From Thermoproteota archaeon (lineage in GTDB: Archaea; Korarchaeota; JAOZGF01; JAOZFZ01), in NCBI GenBank assembly GCA_027492035.1, contig JAOZFT010000020.1, positions 1 through 64,000 on the forward strand: DNA of 64,000 nt. Direction: 5' to 3'. This document shows positions 3 to 61,798 of this stretch, one piece after another. Every line of letters starts with the position of its first letter. The first letter of the stretch is position 1. The notes below the pieces were generated by a model that did not search any database, was not told where the DNA came from, and worked only from the letters and a program-made list of their open reading frames with translations. A program made the position numbers and the translations under genes.

Positions 3-473
3 TTCTTATCATTATTTCTAACTAGGTTTCGATCAACTTCATTTCCTATAGGTAGGGTTGTTATAGCTAGAATATATTATTATGATGCCATAGTTCCTGT
101 AGAAGAAGATCCTAATGAGCATAAGAAACAGAAAGAATTCTTTAATAAACTTCAGCTTAAGATGGGTATGTGTGAAGTAAAGCTTGGGGATATAATTACT
201 ACCGATAAAGGTCGTAAGCAAAAGGGTGTAGATACTTTAATAGCTATCGACATGATAACTAAGGCATATTTAAATCACTATGATGTAGCTTATTTGGTAG
301 CGGGAGATAGGGATTTCGTAAATGTAGTTAAAGCTGTGAAGGACTATACGGGGAAGATAGTTGTCGGAGCATTTGAGCCTACAAGCATATCGGAGGAATT
401 ACTAAGAGTTTTCGATTGGAGGAGACCTATAAGGAAAGAAGAGTTAAGTAGAATTTGTGAAGAAGTTAGATAA
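3..473 (+). CDS. NYN domain (LabA/DUF88, PIN-like) protein, 5'-truncated by the window edge
   Basis: Frame is open from position 3 (..RIYYYDAIVP..) into the listed ORF. Motifs QKGVDTLIAIDM and LVAGDRDF are typical of NYN domains. Confidence 0.9.
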   Translation, partial: FLSLFLTRFRSTSFPIGRVVIARIYYYDAIVPVEEDPNEHKKQKEFFNKLQLKMGMCEVKLGDIITTDKGRKQKGVDTLIAIDMITKAYLNHYDVAYLVAGDRDFVNVVKAVKDYTGKIVVGAFEPTSISEELLRVFDWRRPIRKEELSRICEEVR

Positions 474-521
474 AGCGCCACCTAAGTAATAAGTTAACCA
501 TAGTTACCCCTACCTTCTTCA

Positions 522-755
522 TTAATGCTTTCCCCCTGTTCTCTGAAGTAAGCGAAATATACCAAATATGACTAGACCGATGCCTCCAAAGAAAAGGAAA
601 TAGGCGAGGGGTGAAGGTATATGGATTGGGTGTGGATGTTCAATAAACCCCTCCTGCTTCCCTCCAATCATGATGGAGTGAGTTAAAACCCAAAGGATCA
701 CTAAGCCAACTGAGCCAATAATTACACATAAAATGCCTTGGCGCATCCTCCCCAC
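522..755 (-). CDS. Small two-TM membrane protein, unknown function
   Basis: 77 aa with two hydrophobic segments flanking a His/Pro-rich loop. Confidence 0.6.
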   Translation of the reverse strand: MGRMRQGILCVIIGSVGLVILWVLTHSIMIGGKQEGFIEHPHPIHIPSPLAYFLFFGGIGLVIFGIFRLLQRTGGKH

Positions 756-1046
756 TTTACTTCACTTCTCCTTTACTCTTAAATATTTAAAGTTCATGCT
801 TAAATAAATACAAGGACCCTTCTGGTTTAAAAAGCTATGCCTTTGTACAGCCGTACAAGCCGTTTGTACAAGGGAAAAGTTGGTTTAGATTTAAAACTTC
901 AGCTAACCAGCTTTCCAGCTTATTACCCCCCTTTTCCTGCATGAGCTTTGCCATTTCCACTTCTCGCATGCTTTGGCCGCTGTTAGCGCTCTGCGAATCC
1001 CAAAGCTCCTAAGGCTAGTAACAAACTCATGGGAGCTTCAGGAACT

Positions 1047-1346
1047 CACACCTTTTTCCACCAAGCTAAAATCCCTGCAACTACTAAACGTATGCTAACC
1101 AAAGCTTCCTGCGCGTAAGATGATCCCAGCAATGCCAAAGATTATACTCACTACTGCCCCAATCTTTCTTGTTCTCTCAAAAATCAATAAAATTAGTGGA
1201 ATAACTCCCAGAGTAGAGGCTAGTAAAATAACGTACCCTACTATTGCTAGCGGAAAAGCACCCCATCCACCTGAGAGCAAAAAAGCTCCAAGGACAAATT
1301 GAATTACCATCCCGAGTAAGGCGACGTACCAGCTTTTGAGCTTCAT
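1047..1346 (-). pseudogene. Multi-TM membrane protein, probably frameshifted near the C-terminus
   Basis: The 83-aa hydrophobic ORF stops at 1095. An adjacent frame continues as ..LVSIRLVVAGILAWWKKV-stop, which looks like the natural last helix. Confidence 0.5.
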
Positions 1347-1435
1347 GGTTAATATTTAATTTAATCGTTTATATCTCTTAAATAAGTTTTGTTTGGCTTA
1401 CCCTAAGTGAGTTGCCTCAATAAACTCCTCAAGGG

Positions 1436-2115
1436 ATGGACATACCTAGCTGGAAGATACACGAAAAATGGTGTGAAGCTCTTGGAATAAGAAAGGAAGT
1501 GTGTCTGAAGGTTAACAGAATAATAGACTCTCCTCCCCATGACTCAGTGGATAGACTTCTCAAATGGGGATGGGCGAGGGAACTGTTTGAGTCAGGAGAG
1601 TTAAACATGCCTATTGGTGCTATTGGAAGGGATGATTACTACAAGGTTACTTCGAAGCTGGCTGAGATAACAAATAAATTCGGCCAGGAAGGTGTTAAAG
1701 CAACTCTCAGCCATGTTGCATTGAATAGAATTGCTGAGTTAGTCGAGTTGGGGTTTGACAAGGAGGGAATAAGAAAGAAGCTTATTGAAGCTGATTTGAT
1801 GAAGTACATCCCGGAGTATGACCAAGCTTTTGCTGATGTATTTCATGAGGTTAAGCCAAGTGAGAGTAAAATTAAGAGGAGAAAAAAATTCGAAGAATTG
1901 GCAAGGAGCGAGGTATACGGAGTTTTCTACACAAGAGGGAGACTGTTTCCCGCTGTTCCAGGCTTAGTTTATGTAAAAAGTAAAATAAAGAAAGAAGAGA
2001 CTTTTATGTTAAGTGGGGTATCAATGCTTATGAGGCTCAGAGGGGAAGAATAAGAAAGTCTATTTCTAGTGAGGAAGAGTTGAAAGAGTTGATCAACGAA
2101 ATCAAAGACGCTTAG
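1436..2115 (+). pseudogene. Hypothetical protein with His-rich putative metal motifs (PSWKIH..HD..HVALN), probable C-terminal frameshift
   Basis: ORF 1436-2053. From about 2000 another frame reads FYVKWGINAYEAQRGRIRKSISSEEELKELINEIKDA-stop(2115), which is more protein-like than the listed tail. Confidence 0.5.
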
Positions 2116-2311
2116 GATAACTTCACCCAGCAGCAAAAAGGCTTGCTACGCTTGGGTTATTTAGCCAATAGGCTGGAAGGGAAACATAGAATTGCTTACA
2201 TGCAAATTGAAGAAGCTAAGACTAGCCATCTCACCAGAGTTGCAGGAAGTGGTGCTTGAAGGTGAAAGGTTTAAATTTTTTTTAACTTATTAAACTATTT
2301 TTGGTGAGCGG

Positions 2312-3856
2312 ATGGACAAGGCCAGTAAAATTTTAAAGGAGTATGAGCGATTCAGTAGGGATGTAGGTAAGCATTCGGACGAGGTAGTAGAGTGCTTCCT
2401 GCATGAGCATGGGGAGAAGTACAAGGACCTTAGCTACGCAGATTTTATAAAAACTTTTAGGTCGATGGGCTACCTAATACCTCCGGAATGGGTGAATGGT
2501 TCGGAGCTTCGTAAGAAGCCAGTGGAAAAGTTAAAGGACTTTTTGATCAGAGCGGAGGAAGAGCGAACTCTCAAGTCAGTTAGGGAGGAATACAAACGAT
2601 TGATAAAATCTAGGCTTAACCAAAGGAATGAAGAGGAGCTGGAGCGTCTTTTGATTACTTTGATGGACGAAGGCGTGGATGATGAGTTGCTAGAGGCAGC
2701 AGAGGAGCTCAAAAATGAAGGCTGGATCGAAAGGGTTCCGACGACTCTCAACGATGGCTCGGCTGAATCAAGCTGCTGGGCTTACCAACAGAAAAGCTGG
2801 AGTGAAAGGCATCCAAGGCTGAGCAGTTGGCTGAAGAAGCTTGCAGCCATCTCCCTGCCAGCAATTTACCTGGGTGCCATGGCCGGTTGTGTCAATCTAC
2901 CAAAACAACCAATTGACAAGCCTCCTTCCATACACATGGTTAGGGTTAAGCAGGATAAGCCTATAATCGGTGTTATAAAGAAGTACAGGCATTTGCTCTT
3001 TAACGAAAGCGTTACTCTTAGTTTTTATGCGAACGCTAGCGATGACGTTGGAGTTAAAAGTGTGTGGGTAGAGATGCCTATTGCCAACTTAACCATGAGT
3101 CACCTAAAAAATGGGTTGTATGGTTGTAATCTGACACTGAAAGAGTTGAATCCAAGCAGGGCTTACTTGCCGTTCGTCGTTAAAGCTTTTGACGGCAGAA
3201 ACGTTGCTAGCATTACTGGCAAGTATTGGCTTGTTTTTAATGAAGTTGTTATAGAGGGTGTACCAGCTGGTCCCCCTCATCTCAATTGTGGCGTCTCTTC
3301 TGCAGTAAAAATACTACGATATTGGGGAATAAACATGACTGCTGAAGAGTTTATAAAGAAGTTCAACATCACGTTTCAGTATGGGGATGTGCTCCTTGAG
3401 GACATTTTTTCGCCGCATCCACCGAAAGAATTAAACATGATCTTGGTTAGAAACTATCACCAAGACGAATTACCGTTCTTTAATCCCTACAACTTGACAC
3501 ACATTATTTCGCTTGGATTCCCAGCAAGCATAGTTACTTGGAACTGTAACTTAACTAATGAGACTTTTTCCCACGCATTTACATGTAGCGGTTTTAAAAG
3601 GGTTAATGGAAGTCTGTACTTATACTTATCGAACTGGGTTATTTCCGAGAATGGGAATTCAATTACAAAATACTGGGATGGCCCTGCCCCTTTCTTACGA
3701 AGATCGACTCCTTGCGTTCCTATTGTCTATGGGCTGCCTCACCGCGACGAAAAAACTGGCCAATTTCTTGGATTTACGCTCTATTCCAGAACAAACATGT
3801 TTAGCTATGACACTTACATACCCAAAAAGTATAAATATTTATTTGAGTCAAGATAA
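2312..3856 (+). CDS. Membrane-anchored protein: N-terminal helical domain, internal TM/lipobox-like segment, Ig-like domain, C39-like (papain-fold) peptidase domain
   Basis: LAAISLPAIYLGAMAGC segment; NASDDVGVKSVWV Ig-like strand; NCGVSSAVKILRYWG (catalytic Cys helix); HAFTCSGF (catalytic His strand); YLYLSN. Confidence 0.7.
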   Translation: MDKASKILKEYERFSRDVGKHSDEVVECFLHEHGEKYKDLSYADFIKTFRSMGYLIPPEWVNGSELRKKPVEKLKDFLIRAEEERTLKSVREEYKRLIKSRLNQRNEEELERLLITLMDEGVDDELLEAAEELKNEGWIERVPTTLNDGSAESSCWAYQQKSWSERHPRLSSWLKKLAAISLPAIYLGAMAGCVNLPKQPIDKPPSIHMVRVKQDKPIIGVIKKYRHLLFNESVTLSFYANASDDVGVKSVWVEMPIANLTMSHLKNGLYGCNLTLKELNPSRAYLPFVVKAFDGRNVASITGKYWLVFNEVVIEGVPAGPPHLNCGVSSAVKILRYWGINMTAEEFIKKFNITFQYGDVLLEDIFSPHPPKELNMILVRNYHQDELPFFNPYNLTHIISLGFPASIVTWNCNLTNETFSHAFTCSGFKRVNGSLYLYLSNWVISENGNSITKYWDGPAPFLRRSTPCVPIVYGLPHRDEKTGQFLGFTLYSRTNMFSYDTYIPKKYKYLFESR

Positions 3857-4688: not shown

Positions 4689-6235
4689 GGTCTGATTTTG
4701 TAAATTTTCACTGAACCATAACTATACACTTTAAACCAATAGGTTGTGTTCTCGAATTTATTAGGTCCATCAAAGTAAGAGTAGGGATCAGTTGCTTTGA
4801 AACTGTAAGGTGAAACAACCCAATAAACTCCATTAATTATTCTGTCAGAAATTACCACATAAGTTACATTATACTTCTTCATTAAATTGTAGGCTTGTAA
4901 AGGATTTTTAAGAAAAATTATTCTTTCTGCGTCCCAGCATCTCTGAGCATAATCCCTGCACATCTCCCAACATCCTCCATACATCACTACTCTTGCAGCT
5001 CTACCTATTACTGCTTCTGAAAAAACATGGTCAGCTAAAAATGTAGAATTTTCTTCAGTATTTTGGCTTATCCACTCTAAAGCTTTTATTTCGTCAGGAT
5101 TAAGCAGCACCCTATATTTTGGATTAGTGGATCTAATAGATGAAGGGTACATTGAGTAAAAACCAATAATGAACAAAGTGATAAGTGATAAGGTTTTTAA
5201 GTACTTATTACCCAATCTTTCTGTTAAGTACTTTACGCCATATCCTATCGAAAAAGCAAGGGGCACTGCTAAAAAAGGGACATATCTCCACCACTCTAAA
5301 GGTTTTACAGGATTGTATGTAGAGAAAAATAAGAGAATGCAGGTCCAAGTGTAAATCAAAGAAGTTAACTTTTTCTTTTTTTTCCTTTCTAAGAAAAGAG
5401 TTACTAAACCAAAAACCGACAAAATAATAAATGGTTCGCTGTAGTGGTTAACAAAATCCTGTATAGAAGGGTATTTACCCATCTCTGAAATCATAGAGTT
5501 AGCAGGGCCATACTTCAAAAATAAAGGTGCAAAATAAAGTAAGGCGGGGATTGTAGAGAGAAGAAGCCACTTTACAGTTTTCAACCCGTTTTCATTATTC
5601 CAGTAAAAAATAACTAGGGGAATAAGTGTTAACACAAATATAACTTCAATGAATGCATTTAAAAAAACTAGGATGGCATTAATAAGGAAAAGAAGAATCA
5701 GGTTCTTACCTGCCTTCTCCAATGAATTCTTAACTGAAATTAGCCCTAAAGGAAGAAGGGTGATACCTATCGTTACAGGAGCCATGTAATATGTTTCATT
5801 CATAAAGGAATAAGTAAAGCAAAGGTAACTTACAGCTAAGAAGGCACTTTCTTTACTCTCCAAAAACTGTTTAAACAAAAAATAAAAAGTTACACAAGAC
5901 AATGCACCTACAGAAGGGGCAAAGTACCTTGACACTATCTCTACAGGTACTTTAAAAACTAAGGAAAAGAAAGCTAGGCAAATATGGTACAGTGGAGGAT
6001 AAGTATAAGGAACCCCTCCATAACTTAAGTCGAGTTCAGGCCTCCAACCATGTTTAATCCACATTTTAGCCATGCCAACGTGATAATATGATTGATAATA
6101 CCAAGTCAATGTCAGATCAGGCAGTTGTGAAAGATAAAAAAGCCTGGGAGTTAAAAGCAGAACAAATAAAGCAACCAAAATAAAAAACTCAATTAAATTT
6201 TCTGTGTTGAAGTTTCCTGTTTTCTCATTTGCCAA
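4685..6235 (-). CDS. GT-C fold polytopic membrane glycosyltransferase (PMT/STT3-like)
   Basis: About 11-13 TM helices; YYH..YTYPPLYH loop; ALEWISQNTEENSTFLAD; LMKKYNVTYVVI; C-terminal VKIYKI. Confidence 0.75.
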   Translation of the reverse strand: MANEKTGNFNTENLIEFFILVALFVLLLTPRLFYLSQLPDLTLTWYYQSYYHVGMAKMWIKHGWRPELDLSYGGVPYTYPPLYHICLAFFSLVFKVPVEIVSRYFAPSVGALSCVTFYFLFKQFLESKESAFLAVSYLCFTYSFMNETYYMAPVTIGITLLPLGLISVKNSLEKAGKNLILLFLINAILVFLNAFIEVIFVLTLIPLVIFYWNNENGLKTVKWLLLSTIPALLYFAPLFLKYGPANSMISEMGKYPSIQDFVNHYSEPFIILSVFGLVTLFLERKKKKKLTSLIYTWTCILLFFSTYNPVKPLEWWRYVPFLAVPLAFSIGYGVKYLTERLGNKYLKTLSLITLFIIGFYSMYPSSIRSTNPKYRVLLNPDEIKALEWISQNTEENSTFLADHVFSEAVIGRAARVVMYGGCWEMCRDYAQRCWDAERIIFLKNPLQAYNLMKKYNVTYVVISDRIINGVYWVVSPYSFKATDPYSYFDGPNKFENTTYWFKVYSYGSVKIYKIRP

Positions 6236-6472
6236 TTACATCCTCTCTCAAGTCAAGAAAATCCTTGAATTTTTTCAATGAAAAAAGAAATTTTTTTAAA
6301 TTTTTTCCAGATAAAAAATTTGTCCAGCCTTGCAAACCTTCACTCTTTAAAGTTATTTTTCAGAAAGGAAGTTTTCAAAAAATTTTTAATTGTTACTCTA
6401 AGACCTTTCTTCACAAATCTAAACCAATTTATTTAAAAATTTTTTAATCTAAAAACGGAGGAGAATGGATAA

Positions 6473-6754
6473 ATGGAGAAGGATAAAGTAATTGGGGCAT
6501 TATTAGTTTTGGTTTGCTTAGTAGTGGCAGCTTTCTATACCTGGGGAATATTTTTAGCTCCTGAAATAATTCAAGTTTGGTTAACAAGGGTTACAGTATA
6601 TATTGCAGTGTTAATTTTAATGGTGCTAGGTATATGGATCGGCTACACTTTAGCTACTACACCTTCAGCGGAAGAAATAGAAAAAGAGCTTGGCGAAATA
6701 GAGGAAAAAACTGGTGAAGAATCTGAAAAAAACTTGAAAAAAGAAGCGAAGTAA
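6473..6754 (+). CDS. Small two-TM protein of a conserved archaeal family, DPM2-like
   Basis: KDKVIGALLVLVCL..FYTW..LGIWIGYTLATTP followed by an acidic coiled tail. GGAGGAG SD upstream. Confidence 0.75.
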   Translation: MEKDKVIGALLVLVCLVVAAFYTWGIFLAPEIIQVWLTRVTVYIAVLILMVLGIWIGYTLATTPSAEEIEKELGEIEEKTGEESEKNLKKEAK

Positions 6755-6829
6755 TTAATTCTTCTTCCCTGCAACATTCCCTTAATTCGCTGTAACTCCT
6801 GAATTTAAATTCACCTTTTAAAAACTTCT

Positions 6830-7687
6830 TTAAGTTTTCTTCGGAATTGTTATAATGAGAGCTGTAAGTATCAAGAAGTATCCTGTTACTTGCCTTAAAC
6901 TATAGGTTTCTCCCAACCAAATTATTGCAAAGAAACTGGCAAAAATAGGTTCTAAAAGATAAATTATTGCCGCTTTAGTTGCAGATACTCCTCTCTGGCC
7001 AAGTATTTGAAGAGAAAGCGCTAAAGAAGTAGCTATAACTGCTAAATAAATCATCAAAACAGTTGGGAAAAACATAAATTTACCTTTCTCTTCACCCATC
7101 AATAAACCTGTAACTAAACTCAAAAGTGAAGTAGTTAATATTTCGACGAAAGTTAAGGGCAACACCTCAAATTTTTTTGAAAAAAAGCTTATTGTAACAA
7201 CTTGAAAAGCGCATGCAATTGAACAAATAAAAATCAATATGTCTCCGAAACCAAATGTCAAGTTTTCAGTTAAAGAAGATAAGGCAGTACCTGTTAAAGC
7301 AAACAAAACTGCTAAAGTTAATCTCTTTGAAGGTTTTTCTCTTAACGTAAAGTGTTCAATCAAGTAAACAAACACGACGTTTAAACTTGTTATAAAAGCT
7401 GCATTCGAAGCTGAAGTGAATTTTAACCCTATTGTCTGCAAAACAAAAGCTAGGAAATTAGTGAATCCGATTACAAAACCTGCTAACAAAGAGTTTCTAT
7501 TTAGCGAACTCTTAAATTTACCTATTAAAGGCATGAATACCAATGAAGCAATTAAAAAACGGTAACCAACAAAAAGAACAGGAGAAAAATAAGTTAAACA
7601 AATTTTAATAGCTGAAAAAGTAGTTCCCCAGATCAAAGTTAAAAGAAGCAAAATTAGGCTACTTCTTAACTCTTCATCTAATTTCAT
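6830..7687 (-). CDS. EamA/DMT family transporter
   Basis: 10 TM in two repeats; IWGTTF, GLKFTSASNAAFI and LLEPIFA motifs. Confidence 0.92.
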   Translation of the reverse strand: MKLDEELRSSLILLLLTLIWGTTFSAIKICLTYFSPVLFVGYRFLIASLVFMPLIGKFKSSLNRNSLLAGFVIGFTNFLAFVLQTIGLKFTSASNAAFITSLNVVFVYLIEHFTLREKPSKRLTLAVLFALTGTALSSLTENLTFGFGDILIFICSIACAFQVVTISFFSKKFEVLPLTFVEILTTSLLSLVTGLLMGEEKGKFMFFPTVLMIYLAVIATSLALSLQILGQRGVSATKAAIIYLLEPIFASFFAIIWLGETYSLRQVTGYFLILTALIITIPKKT

Positions 7688-7849
7688 GAATTAAGATCTC
7701 CCTCCCTTTTTCTTGGAAAATAGCAATTTTTTAAAAGAAACCTGGCGAATGTCTTTAACATCTCACCTCCCCTTTTTAAATATGAAAGTTTAAAGTAGAA
7801 GCACTAGAATTTTACAAATTTCTTTAAAGGAAAGAAGTTGTGAAAAACT

Positions 7850-53165: not shown

Positions 53166-56078
53166 TTACTCAAGGTAAAGAGCAGGTTTTCCAGGCAGGG
53201 CTCTGCTGCTTTTTTTTGCAGGGTCATAAATTGGTTGTTCAGCTTTCTGGATATTAAGCCTTAGATTAGTTTGTTTTTCAATGTAGCTCTTTGTTTCTTT
53301 CAAGGTTTTGACTTCTTTTTCTTGTGTAGATAGCCAAATCCACTGCCCAGTTTTTGCTATTGTTTGAATTATTTTCACAACTTCTTTTCCATGCTTTTTT
53401 ATTTCTTCCTTCTTCATAAGTTCCTTAGTTAAGGTTTTGGGGTCAAGTTTCCTGGTTTCCATATAGATCTTCTTTATTTCATTCATTAACTTAAACTTCC
53501 AAGACTCTGCCACGTAGACATAAACATTGTTTGGTTTCTTCCCTAGAAGCTTGCTTATGGCATTGATGTCATCAATTAAGCTGTCAACGAACCCCATAGA
53601 CTCTTCCACTTCTTCATTAATGAATTCTTTTTTTGCCTCAGGCCAAGAGGAAACTGAAACAAGTTCTTTATGTCCAAGTTTCTCCCAAATTTCTTCAGCC
53701 ATGTGTGGAGCAAATGGAGCCAAAAGTTTAGCCCAAACATTTAGTACATTCCACATTACGGGATTGGTTGCTTCTTCGTTTTTCCTTTCCGAAACAGCTG
53801 CAAGGTATTTAGAGACTTCAAGGTCGAAAAGGTAAAAAACGTGATGAAGAGCTTCTCTCACTCTACACTCTTCCAAAGCTTTTGTTGACGCTTCTATATG
53901 TTTTTGAACCCTTGAAAGCAACCATTTGTCCCACATGGCTAAGTTACTAGGTATTTCTTTATTTTTAACCTTTGAAAACTTCTTTGTTAATTCATAAATT
54001 TTTTTAAGTCTTGAAATAGTTGATTTAGCTACTGTTTCGCTGAAGTCAGCGTCTGATAAGAGTTCAGCTGAACCTAGGATTGATAATCTTAAAGTATCTG
54101 CACCATAAGTTTTAATTGCTTCCTTTATCGGGATTATGTTGCCTAAAGTTTTGCTCATTTTCTTCCCGTTCATAGTAACTGAACCATTAACCACTATTTG
54201 TTTAGGCCAGTGTTCCCGTTTGAAAATTGCTAAATGGTTGAAAATGAAAAATGTTAAATGGTTCCAGATGAGATCTCTTCCGCTATTTCTTGAATCTAAA
54301 GGGTACCAGTACTCGAATTCTTTCCTCATTCCAGAAAGAATCTCTTGTGGAATCCCTGTTTCTTCAGAAATCTTTTCAGGGTTACCTTTTCCAAGGAAAA
54401 CATAATCAAATACTTTGTTATTGAAGAGTTTCCCTTCCAGCTTGAACTTGTTTATGTATTTAGCTATAGTGTAATAAGCCATGTAAATTGTTGAATCGCT
54501 TAAACTTTCAATTATCCAATCTGGATCCCAGGGGAAACGTGTACCTAAACCGCTCCTTCTTGCGCAAGCTCTTTCCTTAAGCCAATCAACGCAATCATAG
54601 AATTCACGCTTCACTTCATTAGGGATAATTCTCAATTCACCTAAGTAATCCTTTACCATTTTTTTCCATTCAAGGTTTCCGTAATCTATAAACCATTGAT
54701 CCTCCACCACTTTTACAATTACTTCTGTTCCGCATCTACAGTAAACAGGTGCATTCGTCAATTCATAAAACTTTATAGCTTCTTTCTTTTTTTCAAGATC
54801 TTCTTTAATTTTCTCCTTTGCTTCTTGAACCTTTAACCCTGCGTATTTACCGGTGTTGCTTTTCATCACTCCAGCATGGAATTCTTTACTGTAAATTAAT
54901 TTAGTGGCTTCCTCCAGTTTAGGGTCGCCTTGATCCTTTATTTTAAATTTTTCAACTGCATCACGGGCTGGAAACTCAGAAAATCCTTCAATTTTAATCA
55001 GTGAGATAGGTTTTATGGCTTGCACTTCATCCATGTTCAAGTTAAACTTTTTCATTTCCTTTATTTTTTTCTTTAAATCTTCCAAGGCTACGTAGTCGTA
55101 AGGGGCATGGCCGGGTACAGACATAACTAATCCTGAGCCGTAGTTGGGATCAACAAACGAAGCTGGCAAAACTAAAACTTTATCTCTAGTTAAGGGGTTA
55201 ATAACTTTCTTTCCTACAAGTTCATTGCCTTGAACATCAGAAATCGGTTTTACTTGGTGAGTTTGAGACTTAAGCTTTAAAACAGCCCTTTCAGAAGTTA
55301 TCCACTTTTCACCGTCAACTTCAACTAGTTTATAAGTAACTTCTGGATTAACCCAAATGTTAGTGACTCCTAAAGTTGTTTCAGGCCGGTAAGTAACCAC
55401 TGGAATGAAAACATTCTCGTTTTCAATTTTAAATTTTATAAGTGTGGTTTCCTCTATTTCAGGCTCCACATCCCCTATTGTGTCGTGCTGCCCCACAGCG
55501 TTTAAGCAAGAGGGACACCACCCTACAGGGTGCTTTCCTTTAACAATGTATCCTTTCTCTTTCAACTTATGAAATTGCCAAGTAATGAATTTACTGTAGA
55601 CGGAATCGATTGTTGTGAACTCCCTTCTCCAATCAATGGAGAAACCCATTAGTTTCATTCCTTCCTTTATTTCGTCCCTGAAATAATTTGCCACGTTCAA
55701 TGGTTCAGTGAAAGTTTTTATTTTGTCCTCAGGCACATGGTAAAGTTCACGGAAAGTCTTTATCAGTTCTTTATCCCCTTTCCTTACTCTTTTAGCCATT
55801 GCTAAAACAGGGGTTCCTGTAAAATGGAAAGCCATAGGCAGCAAAACATTAAACCCTTCCATTCTCTTAAATCTGGCATATACGTCCGTTAAAGAATAAG
55901 TTCTGCCATGTCCTATATGTTGAGGGCTGTTAGGGTAAGGATAAGCTACAGTGATGAAAAACTTAGGTTTATTTGACACCGGGTCTGCCTCAAAAATTTT
56001 TTTCTCAACCCAAACCCTCTGCCACTTAGTTTCAATTTCCCTCATTAACTTAACAAAATCTTTACTCAAAAGGAACAC
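53166..56078 (-). CDS. leuS: Leucyl-tRNA synthetase (archaeal type)
   Basis: AYPYPNSPQHIGHGRT, SIDWRREF, SVPGHAPYD, ESLSDSTIYMAYY, KMSKT, PGKPALY. Confidence 0.97.
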   Translation of the reverse strand: MFLLSKDFVKLMREIETKWQRVWVEKKIFEADPVSNKPKFFITVAYPYPNSPQHIGHGRTYSLTDVYARFKRMEGFNVLLPMAFHFTGTPVLAMAKRVRKGDKELIKTFRELYHVPEDKIKTFTEPLNVANYFRDEIKEGMKLMGFSIDWRREFTTIDSVYSKFITWQFHKLKEKGYIVKGKHPVGWCPSCLNAVGQHDTIGDVEPEIEETTLIKFKIENENVFIPVVTYRPETTLGVTNIWVNPEVTYKLVEVDGEKWITSERAVLKLKSQTHQVKPISDVQGNELVGKKVINPLTRDKVLVLPASFVDPNYGSGLVMSVPGHAPYDYVALEDLKKKIKEMKKFNLNMDEVQAIKPISLIKIEGFSEFPARDAVEKFKIKDQGDPKLEEATKLIYSKEFHAGVMKSNTGKYAGLKVQEAKEKIKEDLEKKKEAIKFYELTNAPVYCRCGTEVIVKVVEDQWFIDYGNLEWKKMVKDYLGELRIIPNEVKREFYDCVDWLKERACARRSGLGTRFPWDPDWIIESLSDSTIYMAYYTIAKYINKFKLEGKLFNNKVFDYVFLGKGNPEKISEETGIPQEILSGMRKEFEYWYPLDSRNSGRDLIWNHLTFFIFNHLAIFKREHWPKQIVVNGSVTMNGKKMSKTLGNIIPIKEAIKTYGADTLRLSILGSAELLSDADFSETVAKSTISRLKKIYELTKKFSKVKNKEIPSNLAMWDKWLLSRVQKHIEASTKALEECRVREALHHVFYLFDLEVSKYLAAVSERKNEEATNPVMWNVLNVWAKLLAPFAPHMAEEIWEKLGHKELVSVSSWPEAKKEFINEEVEESMGFVDSLIDDINAISKLLGKKPNNVYVYVAESWKFKLMNEIKKIYMETRKLDPKTLTKELMKKEEIKKHGKEVVKIIQTIAKTGQWIWLSTQEKEVKTLKETKSYIEKQTNLRLNIQKAEQPIYDPAKKSSRALPGKPALYLE

Positions 56079-56348
56079 CTAAAAGAGAGGAATAGGGATG
56101 TATTTCATTAAAAACAGAAGGAGAATGTATAGTTTAAATATATGAAAGGGAAAATTAAAAGGTTCCTTGTTTAAAACAATTCCGGCAAGTCAAGCCCCTC
56201 CTTTAAAAAGTTAAGGAGGTAAGGTTCCCATCAATGCTTATTTAAATTTTTTGTTTCCTATACAGTTATTAATTAGGAAAAATTTCAGCAGAGGAGGACA
56301 GAGTAGCTAGGAGAGAAGGAAAATTGATGATTAAGGAAAAAGAGGAAC

Positions 56349-57149
56349 TTATTGCAGAGAAAAATGTTTTAATTTTTCGTTTAAGTAATCAACTAAACTG
56401 TTTGTTTTTTTCACTGCGTGAAAGTTCAAATCTAAACCTGTCACAGCTATCTTCCCCTCCCTTTTTATGACATATACATCTGTGCCAGGTTCACCTTCAT
56501 AGAAATCCATTCTCCAACTCTTTAGAGTGTAAATGTTCTCCCATGCCTCCCTAAAAATGTCTTTGTAAACAGTATCAGCTATTTCAGCAAATACGGCCTC
56601 TGCTTTCTTCAATTTTGAGGGTACATTGATAGAAATAATTTTAACCTTAGGAGGCATTCCATTCCTAAAGACATAATTAACGGTATGTTCCAAAACAAAG
56701 GATGCAGCTTTGAACGCAACTTTGCTCCTAACCTTTACGTCACAATACGAAACAGCTATTGAAGGTATTTCGTGAAGAGCAGCTTCCAAGGCAGCGCCTA
56801 TAGTGCCTGAATTCAAGTAGTCCTCCAATCCAAGATTAGGGCCCAAATTAATGCCTGAAACTACCAAGTCAGGCCTAAATTTAAGTAATTTATAAAGGGC
56901 AAGTAATACGCAGTCGGCAGGTGTTCCATCAACACAAAAACCGTCGTTTATTTTCACTACTTTAATTGGTTTTGTAAGGGTTAAGGCTTTACCCATTCCA
57001 CTTTTAGGGTTGAAAGGAGCAACCCAAGCAAGTTTAACTAATTTTTTAAGGGTTTCCTTAGCTAACTCTAAACCTACAGATCCTACACCGTCATCGTTAA
57101 CCAACAAAACCTTTCTCAAACTCATCAACTCTTCAACAGACAGAAACAA
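56349..57149 (-). CDS. surE: SurE 5'/3'-nucleotidase
   Basis: LLVNDDG, DGTPADCV, VVSGINLGPN, SGTIGAALEA. Confidence 0.93.
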   Translation of the reverse strand: MFLSVEELMSLRKVLLVNDDGVGSVGLELAKETLKKLVKLAWVAPFNPKSGMGKALTLTKPIKVVKINDGFCVDGTPADCVLLALYKLLKFRPDLVVSGINLGPNLGLEDYLNSGTIGAALEAALHEIPSIAVSYCDVKVRSKVAFKAASFVLEHTVNYVFRNGMPPKVKIISINVPSKLKKAEAVFAEIADTVYKDIFREAWENIYTLKSWRMDFYEGEPGTDVYVIKREGKIAVTGLDLNFHAVKKTNSLVDYLNEKLKHFSLQ

Positions 57150-57710
57150 CGTGTCTTTTTACTTCAGCGTCTTCAAAAACCAGAAAAGCAACTCTCTTTT
57201 TCATGGAACCGGTTCTGTTAACTTATTGTTGGTGAAGTGAAAGAATAAAAAAATTATTGAATTTCTCCCCTACTTCATTGGAAATAAACTTTGATAAACT
57301 TAATTTGATAACACATTGGTTCTCTTATTAAATCCCTTTACCATTTTCCAATCTCAAATTGATTCCGCAAGCTTCGGCAGGTGTTTTTACAAGATTTCAG
57401 AAATCTCTTCGCAACAGAAATGTAAGCCTTAACCATTTGGTAGAAATACTTTCTCAGTTTAATTTCTTTGATGAACTTGCCTATTAACTCACAGCGTCCT
57501 TGCGGCGTAAGCTTCTTTAATATTCAGGCCAATAACTGATTATGTGAGTATTAAAAAATTTTATAAGAAGAACTTTATAAAAGTTCGTTTTAACCTCTAA
57601 ATTTAGAAGATTATGTGAATAAAGGTTTGTGAAATAATTGTTGTCCGAAATTGCGGCGACGGGAGAAAAAATTAAAAATAGATTACATACATTAAGTGAG
57701 GTGATCAGGG

Positions 57711-57941
57711 ATGGTCATATTAACGGCGATAATTCACAAAGAAGAAGATATGTATGTTGCTGAGTGCCCAGAAGTTGGAACTGTAAGTCAGGGTAAAACT
57801 ATAGAAGAGGCAATTTACAACCTGAAAGAAGCAACAGAATTGTATCTTGAAGAATTCCCCCTGGAAGAGAAAGAACATCCGATTCTTACGACTTTTGAGG
57901 TATCTAAAGTTATGGGAGCAGAGAAAATTGCCAAAGCTTAG
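57711..57941 (+). CDS. hicB: HicB-family antitoxin
   Basis: YVAECPEVGTVSQGKTIEEAIYNLKEATELYLE. Confidence 0.93.
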   Translation: MVILTAIIHKEEDMYVAECPEVGTVSQGKTIEEAIYNLKEATELYLEEFPLEEKEHPILTTFEVSKVMGAEKIAKA

Positions 57942-58158
57942 AAAGATTTCTGGGGAAGACGTAGTTAAGATATTACATAACAAATTTGGCTTTCAAATAA
58001 CAGGGAGAAAAGGTAGTCATGTTAGATTATCCAAAATGACGCCTAGTGGAAAAGTTGGGACTGTGGTTCCAATGCATAAAGAACTAAAGATAGGAACCCT
58101 CAGGGGTATCTTGAAGCTTGCAAAGGTAGATATTGATGAATTCTCTAAGTATCTATAA
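57928..58158 (+). CDS. hicA: HicA-family toxin (probable TTG start at 57928)
   Basis: MPKLRKISGEDVVKIL..GF..RKGSHVRL..VVPMHKELKIGTLRGIL. Confidence 0.93.
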   Translation: MPKLRKISGEDVVKILHNKFGFQITGRKGSHVRLSKMTPSGKVGTVVPMHKELKIGTLRGILKLAKVDIDEFSKYL

Positions 58159-58209
58159 GATTATGTCGTCACCCGCAAATTTCAGCTCCGCTCCGGTGCT
58201 AGCGCACTA

Positions 58210-58303
58210 GGACAATAGGGAGATATGTGGCTTCGCCTTCGACTATGCCCCAATCTGCTCCATTACTGTCCCGCAAACTTCACATATCCTCAAAACGTTA
58301 GGC
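58210..58303 (+). repeat. attC-like site 1
   Basis: R''-like GGACAAT (AAC changed to AAT); arms GATATGTG/CACATATC; R' GTTAGGC at 58297-58303. Confidence 0.7.
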
Positions 58304-58353
58304 GTAATTCCTGCGCGCCTCAAAGATCGAAAGCTTTATAAATATTTTTTAGA

Positions 58354-58590
58354 TTGGCAAATATTATGATAGTAGAAATTGTATTAAAAAACGAACCAAG
58401 TTTGGAACTTGAAGGCTATGAAAAAATAGAGCTTCCGAACGGAGCAATTTTTGCAAACCCAGTAGAAAAGAGGGTAGAGATAGTTGTGAAGAAACATCCA
58501 GATGGTAGAGTTAGTATATTTACAGACAAATCAGAAGTGATAAAATCAGTAGTGCAACTTGGAGAAGTTGTTGATATTCACGCAAAATAG
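58354..58590 (+). CDS. Orphan cassette protein (probable ATG start at 58366)
   Basis: Intact ORF between two attC-like sites, preceded by CTTTATAAATA. Confidence 0.75.
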   Translation: MANIMIVEIVLKNEPSLELEGYEKIELPNGAIFANPVEKRVEIVVKKHPDGRVSIFTDKSEVIKSVVQLGEVVDIHAK

Positions 58591-58644
58591 GTCGGCGCGC
58601 TCGGAACTTCTCCGTTCGCTTTGCTCACTCCAATTCTTTGGGAT

Positions 58645-58739
58645 GCCTAACAGCGGTTACGAGGAAAATCTGTACTTCGTTTGATTTTTTCCCAAATCGC
58701 TCTTACGAGCAACTTCTCGTAACCACAATAATGTTCAGC
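58645..58739 (+). repeat. attC-like site 2
   Basis: R'' GCCTAAC at 58645; arms GGTTACGAG (58655-58663)/CTCGTAACC (58716-58724); R'-like GTTCAGC at 58733. Confidence 0.75.
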
Positions 58740-59067
58740 GGCAAGAATACCCAAATTTCGCCTTGCAGAATATAAAACTCCAAAATAATAACAACCCTCT
58801 AGAGCCCACGACACCCTTAAAATTTGTGCTTGGCGAAACTTCGCGCAACAGGAAATTAAGCGGTTTAACTTTGCTTCCAATTGTTGTTGGAATTTTGACA
58901 TTTGGAATAAAGCTTATTAGTAGTTCTAATTCAGAAATCTCAAGAGCGGGCTTCTGGTTGTTGCGATTTATAGTTGGTGGTATCTCATTTGCGGTTGCTA
59001 TGTAACTTTTCGAATTGACTGTGTTATACGCGACGATTTGCTATCTTAAATACTTTAGAACGAGAGA

Positions 59068-59332
59068 TGGGGATGTTGAATGACGTATCACCGAAAAATC
59101 GCGTCAATTTACCTTTCTGAGGGGTTATCTTAGATTTAATTGGACATTAATAAAAAGCATTAGATTTCCGCCCGCTATCTTCTATTCTATCCTTGGAGGA
59201 TGTAGCATTATCCTGTTTACAGGAAATATTGCCTTTAAATCAATCATAATTGGCTTGTTGCTGGCATTATTTATTTTGCCTATTGTAATGCTGTTACCTA
59301 TCTCCCTTACAAAAGGGGTTTGGTTCAAATGA
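59068..59332 (+). pseudogene. Decayed membrane-protein gene in a cassette
   Basis: Stops and frameshifts in the 5' half. The 3' half reads LGGCSIILFTGNIAFKSIIIGLLLALFILPIVMLLPISLTKGVWFK-stop. Confidence 0.55.
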
Positions 59333-59350
59333 ACACGAATAACAAACGGC

Positions 59351-59438
59351 GTATAACAGAGTGTATCTGGCTCCATGCTTTAGAAACTTCGCCCAAACCC
59401 TGCTTCGCAGGACTTCAGATATGCTTGAAACATTAAGT
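59351..59438 (+). repeat. attC-like site 3
   Basis: R'' GTATAAC at 59351; arms AGTGTATCTG/CAGATATGCT; R'-like ATTAAGT (GTT changed to ATT) at 59432. Confidence 0.7.
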
Positions 59439-59503
59439 GAGATGCCCTTCGTCTTTGAAAAGATTTAAAACTTAGAGTAGAATAGAACAATAAGTGCAAA
59501 AAA

Positions 59504-59846
59504 ATGAAAAAAATCACTGGGTGAGATAAGAACAATTATCAAAAACATAAAAAAGAACTTAAAGGAAAGCATGGAGTTAAAGAAATAGGAATCTTTTTTG
59601 GGGTGAGGGGAGAAGCAAAGAAAAATAGCGATATTGACATACTGGTTGAATTCGAAAAGTCTACGGGATTCTTTAAATTTCTCAAACTGAAGAGATATCT
59701 GGGTAATTTAATAGGTGGAAAAGTGGATCTTGTACCTAAAAAAGGCGCTTAAACCACATATTGGAAAAATATATTCTTGAGGAAGTTGTAACAGTGTGGA
59801 GAAAATATACAGGGATTACATACTGTTTTAGATCATCCTGTTCTGT
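59504..59846 (+). pseudogene. MNT (minimal nucleotidyltransferase) antitoxin pseudogene plus a possible stub of the HEPN/DUF86 toxin
   Basis: Across frameshifts: KHKKELKGKHGVKEIGIFFG.VRGEAKKNSDIDILVEFEK..KVDLV..ALKPHIGK.ILEEV, then a short YRDY-type HEPN start. Absent from the ORF track. Confidence 0.85.
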
Positions 59847-59856
59847 AAAAAAGTTC

Positions 59857-60387
59857 TTAACCCTTTTTAACTTTCCACTTTCTAATTAATTTATTAGCTA
59901 AGAAAGAAATTATTAACATCACAACTAAAGAAAGGACCACTACAAAGTAAAGGTTTGAAGTGAAACGAAGGAAACCTAAAATAGAACTTGCTATTATGAA
60001 ATAGAAAAGACAATTCCCAACAACACCTGCAGCGTACACTTTCCGTCTTTTAACCCCCATCAAGGCCATTAAAGGAACTGATAAATAAACCCAAAGTGTG
60101 AAGCAAAGTAAGACTAAGCCTGTAAAAGACGCAGCTGAACCGTACTTCTCCTCAAAATCAATTCTCTTCCTTTTAAAATATTCACTAAACCTCATGCTTA
60201 CCTTACTAATTTCTAAACCAGCGAAGTAAGCAATAGTGATCGCTAAAATGAGGGATATAAACCAAAGGATTGTTCCCCCTGCTAAACCAATTTCTGAACT
60301 ATAAAGCACAGTTAATGCCGGAATAATGACAGCCGAAAACTGCACAAGAAGTAAAAGAAATAACAGAAATAAAGTAAGTAATTCCAT
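59857..60387 (-). CDS. Polytopic membrane protein (possibly DedA/SNARE-associated-like)
   Basis: 5-6 hydrophobic helices; IAYFAG..FEEKYG pattern. Confidence 0.65.
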   Translation of the reverse strand: MELLTLFLLFLLLLVQFSAVIIPALTVLYSSEIGLAGGTILWFISLILAITIAYFAGLEISKVSMRFSEYFKRKRIDFEEKYGSAASFTGLVLLCFTLWVYLSVPLMALMGVKRRKVYAAGVVGNCLFYFIIASSILGFLRFTSNLYFVVVLSLVVMLIISFLANKLIRKWKVKKG

Positions 60388-60496
60388 TCTTCACCAACTC
60401 CCGTAAGAAGGTAAAAGGAGTCAAATTTTAAATTTAAATCTTCTCTTTTAATTTTTTTAAACCAAGTGAAGGAAAGGGTGAGAAAGGTAAGGGTAA

Positions 60497-61798
60497 ATGG
60501 GTGAAAAGGAAGTTTCTGAAATAGTTGATGAAGCAAAGGGGGAAATAATCTCTTTCTGCCGAGAATTAATTAAAACTGAGAGCTATAACCCTCCAGGTGG
60601 GGAAGAAAAGGTGGTGCAGGTAATAGCAAAGAAACTTGAGGAGGAAGAAGTACGGTATGAAATAATAAGTTCAGGAAATAAGAGAACCAATATATTAGCG
60701 GGGATAAAGAAAGGGAATGGGAGGAAACTTCTTTTCTGTGGACACATGGACACGGTTCCGCCAGGGGAGCTAGAAACTTGGAAGTTCCATCCCTTAAGTG
60801 CAGCGGTTGAGGATGGCAAAATCTACGGTAGAGGAGCATGTGATATGAAAAGTGGCTTAGCTTCGATGGTAATGGCTGCCATCCTATGTAAAAGACATGA
60901 GGAATGCATGAACAAAATCAATGGGGAAGTAATCTTGGCTATAGTTGCTGACGAAGAAATGGGAAGCGACTACGGCATGAAATTTTTAGTGAATAATTAT
61001 AGAGAAAAGTTAGGGGCTGATTACGCAGTTGTCTGTGAACCTTCAGGTTCGTCAACAACCGGGAAAGCTATTGTGATCGGTGAGAAAGGGGATTATGAAT
61101 TAAAGGTTACCTTCTTTGGAAAGAAAGGGCATTCAAGTGTCCCTTATCTAGCTGATAACGCGGTTGAAAAAGCCTGTAGATTCATTGCAAACCTTAACAA
61201 AATGAAAATTAGGAGAGTGAAACCTCCAATAACAAAGCTTCAATACCTTAAAATGTTTGTTGAAAAATATGGATGGGGAGAAATATTAAAGGGTTTGTTT
61301 TCAAAGCAGAAAAGTGCAGGAACAGCTGTGTTGAAGGCTTTAGTGAGCTGTGTATATTCTACAACAATTATAAATGGTGGATTCAAGTCCAACGTAATCC
61401 CTGACAAATGTGAAGCTACAATTGATTTCAGGGTGTTGCCTGGACAAACAGTTCAGGATGTGGAAGAAGCTGTTGAAAACTTAGCTGCAAAACTAGGGAT
61501 AAAGGTTTCAGTGGAAGTGCCTTTAGTAATTGAACCCTCGGTTCTCACTGATGGAGAAGAGTTGACAGGGACATTGGAGAAACTTGTGAATAAATTTTAT
61601 GGTGAAAAACCCTTAAAGATAATGATGCCAGGAGCTTCAGATGCTAGGTTCCTCAGAAACATATTAAAAATACCTACTGTTCAATTTGGTCCTGGAGAGG
61701 GAGAAACAGCTCATGCCAGTAACGAATACGTGGAAATAAATGATTTAATAAAGGCAACAAAAGTTTACATGTCTTTAATCGAGGAAATCTTCAAATAA
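60497..61798 (+). CDS. M20-family metallopeptidase/deacylase (ArgE/DapE-like)
   Basis: CGHMDTVP, YGRGACDMKSG, ADEE, VCEP, GHSS, SDAR, AHASNE. Confidence 0.93.
   Translation: MGEKEVSEIVDEAKGEIISFCRELIKTESYNPPGGEEKVVQVIAKKLEEEEVRYEIISSGNKRTNILAGIKKGNGRKLLFCGHMDTVPPGELETWKFHPLSAAVEDGKIYGRGACDMKSGLASMVMAAILCKRHEECMNKINGEVILAIVADEEMGSDYGMKFLVNNYREKLGADYAVVCEPSGSSTTGKAIVIGEKGDYELKVTFFGKKGHSSVPYLADNAVEKACRFIANLNKMKIRRVKPPITKLQYLKMFVEKYGWGEILKGLFSKQKSAGTAVLKALVSCVYSTTIINGGFKSNVIPDKCEATIDFRVLPGQTVQDVEEAVENLAAKLGIKVSVEVPLVIEPSVLTDGEELTGTLEKLVNKFYGEKPLKIMMPGASDARFLRNILKIPTVQFGPGEGETAHASNEYVEINDLIKATKVYMSLIEEIFK

Follow-up and report, generated by a model that had tools for sequence, protein, structure and literature searches.

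The question raised by positions 57640-59856 of a korarchaeal contig (JAOZFT010000020.1; its first 64,000 nucleotides are called the window below) is whether the small, co-oriented units lying there between surE and a membrane gene form an array of integron-type gene cassettes, and what kind of recombinase could have assembled them. Integrons are bacteria's main gene-capture device; archaeal ones were reported only in 2022 and are almost always integrase-free. The original prediction, made from the letters of the window, had read the locus as a cluster of attC sites lacking an integron integrase (CALIN), left by an IntI-type recombinase encoded elsewhere or lost. We compared the locus with the rest of its own genome (1.87 Mb in 42 contigs, 36.6% G+C, 93.29% complete) and with 100 relatives, many from other phyla, and conclude that 57640-59856 probably represents the fossil of a small array whose gene cassettes are of the integron type, that is, a CALIN in the broad sense. 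The comparison also showed what an intact cassette consists of: it begins with the TT of a GTT box, continues through a gene with a promoter-like TATA box of its own, and ends with a recombination site of ~90 nt, predicted to fold, whose last base is G.

Units of the array and their boundaries

Between surE and the membrane gene, the array comprises five units with three sites, w1 to w3, and several open reading frames (ORFs):

57640-57655, plus strand: opening of unit 1, where box GTTGTCC precedes the conserved GAAATTGC
57641-58297, plus strand: cassette 1 (unit 1), a hicB-hicA toxin-antitoxin pair and terminal site w1
57711-57941, plus strand: hicB-like antitoxin ORF, 76 aa (HicB-like 24.1 bits, under the Pfam cut-off of 27)
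57847-58158, plus strand: hicA ORF, 103 aa as listed from a TTG (HicA_toxin 56.2 bits)
58210-58303, plus strand: site w1, 94 nt, with 5′ box GGACAAT, inner stem, conserved interior and 3′ box GTTAGGC
58298-58733, plus strand: cassette 2 (unit 2), with its own TATA-like box, a 78-aa orphan ORF, an upstream module and terminal site w2
58354-58590, plus strand: the 78-aa orphan ORF of cassette 2, no family assigned
58591-58644, plus strand: upstream module of cassette 2, preceding site w2
58645-58739, plus strand: site w2, 95 nt, with 5′ box GCCTAAC, a 9-bp stem and 3′ box GTTCAGC
58734-59023, plus strand: unit 3, an 80-aa hydrophobic ORF (58763-59005), no terminal site
59024-59432, plus strand: cassette 4 (unit 4), a frameshifted small membrane-protein gene and terminal site w3
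59351-59438, plus strand: site w3, 88 nt, with 5′ box GTATAAC and a degenerate 3′ box, ATTAAGT
59433-59856, plus strand: unit 5, a decayed MNT-type nucleotidyltransferase gene that contains a stop and changes frame, no terminal site

The observation behind the original prediction was borne out overall, and all six of its boxes were found in place. GTTGTCC (57640) and GGACAAT (58210) enclose the hicBA unit, GTTAGGC (58297) and GCCTAAC (58645) enclose cassette 2, and GTTATACGC (59023) is complementary to GCGTATAAC (59349) around cassette 4, where the pairing extends to 13/14; the first pair is complementary at 6/7 positions and not, as claimed, at 7/7. The junctions, expected to be 88-95 nt long, measure 94, 95, and 88 nt, and the CG-richness noticed for the stretch is seen in these elements, which have 42-51% G+C as compared to 36.7% across the window. 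All three sites are on the plus strand, with start-to-start spacings of 435 and 706 nt, and point the same way as the ORFs between them, which are likewise all on the plus strand; the units are thus co-oriented, as had been said. For a CALIN, the criterion quoted in PMC9668308 is a minimum of two attC-type sites separated by under 4 kb; the array has these, and they are co-oriented with the cassette ORFs. Further details of the prediction did not hold. Instead of GTT, site w3 has ATT in its 3′ box, and the sites that were to join all units are present at w1 to w3 but not before 59023 or before 57640.

The complementarity between the first and last boxes of one cassette, which the prediction had attributed to their origin from one circle, was borne out well beyond the window. 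For 19 pairs of adjacent, co-oriented sites, we matched four informative positions in the 3′ box of the first site against those in the 5′ box of the next one, and 52/76 positions proved complementary. The controls reached 41-43%, with 68/164 positions complementary between the two boxes of one site and a mean of 1.72/4 between boxes from different loci, and none of 20000 permutations attained the observed sum. Nine of the 19 pairs were perfect at all four positions, and upon removal of one weak hit, two poor pairs became a single perfect 7/7 pair. In the G047:C15 array of a relative, two near-identical sites diverge exactly at G|TT.

Cassette-wise shuffling had been named as the discriminating test, and cassette 2 provided it. 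Its 78-aa ORF has 13 relatives in metagenome contigs, with 69-95% identity. The DNA homology starts at 58297-58299 in four of these contigs, which is the predicted junction, and homologues that share this G|TT start lie behind unrelated flanks: the five left flanks all differ, three having sites of other subtypes and two having no site. One homologue (L206) carries the same site subtype as the window, and there the similarity at the right end stops at G|TT. Another (L213) begins its cassette with TTATGC and has GCATAAT as 5′ box, where the window has TTAGGC and GCCTAAC, so that the two ends have changed in step; two further homologues show no such matching change. The locus is a clean worked example, its cassette boundaries being borne out independently by metagenome contigs. 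A TATA-like box ~35 nt before the start codon is also kept in cassette 2 and its homologues, and this conservation suggests that the cassette may carry its own promoter rather than relying on a common promoter, Pc.

Among the 100 relatives, the 78-aa orphan was found only in a genome of another phylum (G081:C4:16324-16551), where it lies between unrelated flanks and no site is present. Because this copy shares 83% identity across phyla and the gene was not found in the other 99 relatives, it points to a recent horizontal transfer.

The hicBA pair, the nucleotidyltransferase relic, whose 49-aa open piece matches NTP_transf_2 with 30.9 bits, and the small orphans are typical of cassettes. The true start of hicA is probably later than the listed TTG because the HicA domain spans only residues 36-93.

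A family of probably folded sites

Short-word BLAST of the region, followed by iterated nhmmer searches and inspection, identified 11 copies of the site at six loci of the own genome:

window: three copies (58210-58303, 58645-58739, 59351-59438)
contig C15: two copies
contig C9: three copies, one lacking its 5′ end
contig C37: two copies
contig C10: one copy

A further candidate on C9 (39056-39185, 15.5 bits) was dropped on inspection.

Read in the sense of the ORFs, the sites follow one plan. The 5′ part consists of a box ending in AAC, a spacer of 1-3 nt, and a stem arm of ~10 nt; the interior that follows is conserved over ~45 nt and contains CCCAAAT as well as small hairpins; and the 3′ part consists of AACTTC with the other stem arm, a spacer of ~5 nt that is often GAAAC, and a box starting with GTT, after which a G.AATT is conserved. 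AAC and GTT are near-invariant in the own-genome copies and in 31 aligned matches at related loci, and the published core boxes RYYYAAC/GTTRRRY fit w1 to w3 with two boxes degenerate. From box to box, the sites of 88-95 nt lie inside the range of 57-141 bp given for canonical attC sites in parts of PMC5027507, and together with a conserved upstream module, some family members reach ~150 nt.

This extra module, seen in many sites, lies ~45-55 nt upstream of the 5′ box (58591-58644 in the window; also L060, L063, and L072-L074) and begins with AACTCT or AACTTC, after which come a small TTCG-looped hairpin and TTCGGGTC. In G047:C15, which belongs to a genome of another phylum, 27 nt that form the core of the window module recur nearly unchanged.

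A covariance model built from three sequences (R1) proved too narrow and was rebuilt from nine own-genome copies, including w1 to w3 (R2). R2 gives 83.5 bits for w1, 58.6 for w3, and 49.5 for w2, scores that are high by construction for training sequences; the next best match in 56000-61000 has 8.7 bits. In the alignment of the nine copies, 89.3% of the inner-stem cells are paired as compared to 77.4% in shuffles and 28-57% with slid partners, and 7/14 pairs vary on both sides; 0/500 shuffles attain the observed value. These counts come from an alignment fitted to the proposed structure, which biases them in its favor. Of the imperfect hairpins proposed at the junctions, that of w2 folds better than its shuffles, with z values of -2.45 and -2.93 for the core and -3.29 and -2.36 for the extended element.

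The fold of the bottom strand, which the prediction had proposed to check, is stabler than that of the top strand in 9/11 own-genome sites; the extra bases lie on the arm where textbook attC sites do not have them. The composition of the sites is also asymmetric between the strands. We counted 69 CTTCG and two CGAAG motifs among 39 elements, against a genome background of 889 and 786 in 1.87 Mb, and 50/69 CTTCG motifs extend into complementary stems, as compared to 91/329 in the control. On the bottom strand, all 69 motifs read C-GAA-G and 18 read GCGAAGC, a motif that parts of PMC13037366 describe as an extraordinarily stable DNA mini-hairpin. The asymmetry fits single-stranded bottom-strand DNA in a folded state, as in integrons.

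Matches to R2 were found in 22/101 genomes, the own genome included (21/100 relatives), some of them from other phyla and often in co-oriented arrays, with E values down to 1e-18. The 15 loci inspected hold 31 matches; in G047:C15, nine lie on one strand within 8 kb, one of them probably false. An exact 22-base consensus pattern occurs in at least 120 archaeal and bacterial contigs, with ~2 matches expected by chance in our own estimate, which assumes equal base frequencies. The archaeal contigs come from Aenigmatarchaeota, Heimdallarchaeota, Methanosarcinales, Thermoplasmata, Altiarchaeum, and others, and the bacterial ones from Dehalococcoidia, Atribacteria, Ignavibacteria, Caldisericum, Leptospirales, and others. 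The site family links many archaeal and bacterial phyla, and the recombinase standing before its arrays usually lacks the domain regarded as defining integron integrases.

Recombinases beside related arrays

No integrase had been seen in the window, and the genome-wide search proposed for a tyrosine recombinase likewise returned none: the own genome has no match to Phage_integrase (PF00589), IntI (TIGR02249), or the XerA family, and tblastn yielded only a 27-aa stretch. This stretch (C9:323103-323183, minus strand; E 0.06) resembles the catalytic C terminus of array-linked recombinases and is surrounded by stop codons, with no family site nearby. It may be what remains of a recombinase gene that the genome has lost. 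Because the genome has no recombinase, two hairpins are weak, and two genes are broken, the array in the window looks inactive and decaying; by itself, it is only an inactive relic.

Related arrays do have recombinases. Among the matches listed, one is encoded at 12/120 pattern loci, and at all ten recombinase loci inspected, the gene is followed downstream by one or more sites on its own strand. Five of the array-linked enzymes obtain their best score as XerA-type (NF040815) and show no alignment to the IntI insertion. The array-linked recombinases score 198-247 bits with the XerA model, carry an extra N-terminal domain of ~70-100 aa, and reach a nearly equal score with the IntI model outside the insertion. 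The Xer-like enzyme is 49-73% identical between one archaeon and four bacterial contigs and 38-42% identical in three further loci. At 4/11 loci, the exact 7-mer that is complementary to the 5′ box of the first site is found 89-104 nt past the recombinase stop codon. The arrangement is well seen in G043:C32, which encodes a 349-aa recombinase (237.6 bits with the XerA model, cut-off 220; 230.1 bits with the IntI model, cut-off 265, the insertion region remaining unaligned). A GTTATAT box lies 89 nt past its stop codon, followed by a restriction-modification cassette and a site with the 5′ box ATATAAC, and then by a second cassette and a second site.

The predicted IntI-type recombinase is therefore right only broadly, because the enzymes at ten related loci are mostly Xer/IntI-like without the IntI-specific insertion. 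In 101 genomes, including the 22 with sites, none exceeded the TIGR02249 cut-off in a search that had no positive control; the same model later detected a full IntI in a Dehalococcoidia genome. Canonical IntI was met twice. The Dehalococcoidia genome, which has 13 sites, encodes the full enzyme (478 bits, cut-off 265) at the start of a contig whose 2.6 kb carry no family site, and because of this position at the contig start its adjacency to an array is unproven. In the second case, on a Heimdallarchaeota contig, the IntI is partial and frameshifted and has the insertion; a site follows 3 kb downstream.

We tentatively propose, as a reading that is plausible though still short of probable, that what survives here is the relic of a separate integron lineage common to Archaea and Bacteria. 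In this lineage, a Xer-like integrase with an additional N-terminal domain, and without the I2 or IntI-specific insertion that is considered necessary for the recombination of folded single-stranded sites, would lie upstream of the cassettes and co-directional with them, an attI-like site would follow ~90-100 nt behind it, and the sites would mirror the asymmetry of attC. On our main reading, a CALIN in the broad sense, the likely enzyme is a Xer/IntI-like recombinase of the kind mostly encoded directly upstream of arrays elsewhere, with the extra N-terminal domain and no IntI-specific insertion. On this reading, a tyrosine recombinase would cut G|TT of the folded single-stranded site; the cassette would leave as a circle, its first bases pairing with the 5′ box of its own site; and the circle would reinsert either into a different site or into an attI-like one that follows the recombinase gene by ~90-100 nt.

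If the proposal of a separate lineage is true, this lineage would be a living relative of a stage before, or beside, classical integrons. Work on integrase evolution takes the gain of the IntI-specific domain as the key innovation, as stated in parts of PMC7790495 and PMC4792948; should an insertion-less enzyme recombine these sites, this assumption would need revision, and the orphan look of so many archaeal arrays would be accounted for. We found no description of integron arrays led by an insertion-less Xer-like recombinase in the literature searched, which included few subscription journals.

Three loci show further arrangements of these genes. In L109 (Atribacteria, 6047-7706), a Xer-like gene lies between two sites, one upstream at 7603-7706 and one downstream at 6047-6152, ~170 nt past the stop codon, so that the recombinase gene looks as if it were arranged like a cassette. 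In L118 (Dehalococcoidia), six plus-strand sites (336-3685) face a minus-strand recombinase with one site (5488-7504), which makes the arrays convergent. G027:C4:44729-46759 is a 702-aa XerA-like open frame whose recombinase motifs lie ~400 aa apart, and it may be split by an intein or another insertion.

Alternative readings and known systems

Several observations weigh against a cassette array. The own genome, as described above, has no candidate enzyme. Nothing site-like was found by R2 left of 57640 in 56000-61000, and two units, 3 and 5, have no terminal site; in unit 3 (58734-59023), R2 gives no match of at least 9 bits. By folding energy, the claimed hairpins of w1 and w3 are poor, with z values from +0.61 to -1.31, so that only w2 beats shuffled sequence. 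Seven of the 19 adjacent pairs match at just 1-2/4 positions, at least two of them involving a probable false hit. Spacers and bulges depart from the attC geometry given in parts of PMC5027507, the spacer of the 5′ arm having ~1-3 nt and that of the 3′ arm 5 nt. Neither a circular junction nor an empty site was seen, and no public sequencing run was listed as containing 57000-60400. Last, synteny at surE is lacking in the nearest relative, whose SurE is 62% identical; because its neighbors there differ, no empty-site comparison was possible, and a metagenome scan with SurE found no relative.

Weighed against these points, the alternatives fare worse. If short inverted words had merely come together by chance in AT-rich intergenic DNA, this would explain why the box pairs by themselves are not significant: exact pairs of GTTNNNN and its reverse complement 250-800 nt apart number three in 57600-59900, one of them irrelevant, and 1000 dinucleotide shuffles gave a mean of 1.67, with 239/1000 reaching at least three. 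We take the boxes as real because they are part of three co-oriented ~90-nt sites of one family with a covarying stem. The family matches elsewhere, with E values to 1e-18, the covarying stem, and the homologous cassettes with common breakpoints refute chance, to which we assign a practically negligible probability. A non-integron family of repeats (miniature inverted-repeat transposable elements, MITEs, or repetitive extragenic palindromes, REPs), structured RNAs, or terminators, with incidental box complementarity, would suit elements that are intergenic, follow same-strand ORFs, have a conserved interior, and at w1 and w3 make poor hairpins; 21/69 CTTCG loops can also be read as UUCG-type RNA tetraloops. 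However, only those 21 fit cUUCGg, whereas 69/69 fit a bottom-strand GAA triloop, and a scan of 57000-60200 against Rfam at E up to 1 matched no family. MITE and REP elements are similarly short, structured, multi-copy, and intergenic, but here the complementarity is between neighboring sites and not within one, and gene and site travel as a unit with sharp G|TT breakpoints. Target-site duplications, which the prediction had named as a sign of such elements, are absent beyond chance: the longest direct repeats flanking ten own-genome sites have 0-3 nt, while 3-7 nt are reached at 300 random positions. A repeat family of this kind is thus very improbable.

An ordinary CALIN is harder to set aside. 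It would consist of bona fide attC sites served only by insertion-bearing IntI, with the Xer-like genes as bystanders or housekeeping genes. The core boxes fit RYYYAAC/GTTRRRY with crossover at G|TT, the two canonical IntI genes described above occur in a genome with 13 such sites and 3 kb upstream of a site, and published archaeal integrons are mostly CALINs, according to parts of PMC9668308. The adjacency of the Dehalococcoidia intI to an array is, however, unproven, and 0/101 genomes exceeded the IntI cut-off, though in the search without a positive control. The bystander role also sits poorly with a Xer-like enzyme that is 49-73% identical between an archaeon and bacteria, always upstream and co-directional, and followed by a start box 89-104 nt behind in four loci. 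We therefore regard an ordinary CALIN as unlikely, and an array of integron-type cassettes in the broad sense remains our preferred reading.

How far this array resembles known integrons differs from feature to feature. Sedentary chromosomal integrons, such as that of Vibrio cholerae with its Vibrio cholerae repeat (VCR) sites, have long arrays with sequence-conserved sites and toxin-antitoxin cargo. Crossover takes place at G|TT, folding favors the bottom strand, and intI is normally divergent from the array, the insertion of its product contacting the extrahelical bases. The present family shares the conserved, family-like sites, the toxin-antitoxin cargo, the G|TT crossover, and the folding preference for the bottom strand, but its recombinases are co-directional with the arrays and mostly insertion-less.

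The attC architecture claimed by the prediction stood for the core boxes and the G|TT junction and fell short in spacer and bulge geometry. In canonical attC sites, as laid out in parts of PMC5027507, each arm has an unpaired central spacer of 5-6 nt and the extrahelical bases lie on the arm opposite the bottom-strand 5′-AAC-3′. Here, the spacers are ~1-3 and 5 nt, and the unpaired TT before the stem, joined by a C in w1-type sites, lies on the other arm, the top-strand 3′ arm, which is the bottom-strand AAC arm.

Archaeal integrons are already published, as the prediction had noted, and most of them have no integrase; parts of PMC9668308 (Ghaly et al. 2022) report them, from a pipeline of HattCI, Infernal, and IntegronFinder, in 75/6718 archaeal genomes with only six IntIs. 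Those arrays likewise have tandem, co-oriented short ORFs between folded RYYYAAC/GTTRRRY sites, usually no integrase on the contig, and a patchy spread over phyla. They differ in frequency, with 75/6718 genomes there and the site family in 21/100 relatives here, and in that the recombinase beside the present arrays usually lacks the IntI-specific domain. The same parts of that survey describe reverse-orientation integrons in Spirochaetota, in which integrase and cassettes are co-directional, as in 10/10 loci here, but whose IntIs have the specific domain that most enzymes here lack. The archaeal XerA/dif system (NF040815), which resolves chromosome dimers, is alike in that the array-linked recombinases score best with its model. 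It differs in that these enzymes have the extra N-terminal ~70-100 aa and a near-equal IntI score outside the insertion, occur also in bacteria, and front cassette arrays rather than a single dif site.

Surroundings of the array

Two genes frame the array:

56349-57149, minus strand: surE, the conserved left flank outside the array (Pfam SurE 159.2 bits)
59857-60387, minus strand: gene of a 176-aa membrane protein, the right flank, known as an ORF only

The 176-aa protein matched no Pfam or NCBIfam family. At 57340-57540, within the 490 nt that separate surE from the array, short stretches resemble parts of the site family, for instance CGCAAGCTTCGG, or CGTAAGCTTC with CCAATAAC after it. Older sites may have left these remains, although R2 does not detect them. 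A decayed site suspected by eye at 58920-59030 was likewise not detected by R2. The 16 nt at the start of unit 1 (57640-57655) recur after two further own-genome sites, on C15 and C9. Paralogous genes of secreted or membrane proteins, one of them truncated, each follow a site on these two contigs (C15:6133-7359 and C9:219284-219604) and have the cassette start GTTGTCCGAAATTGC in common with the hicBA unit of the window.

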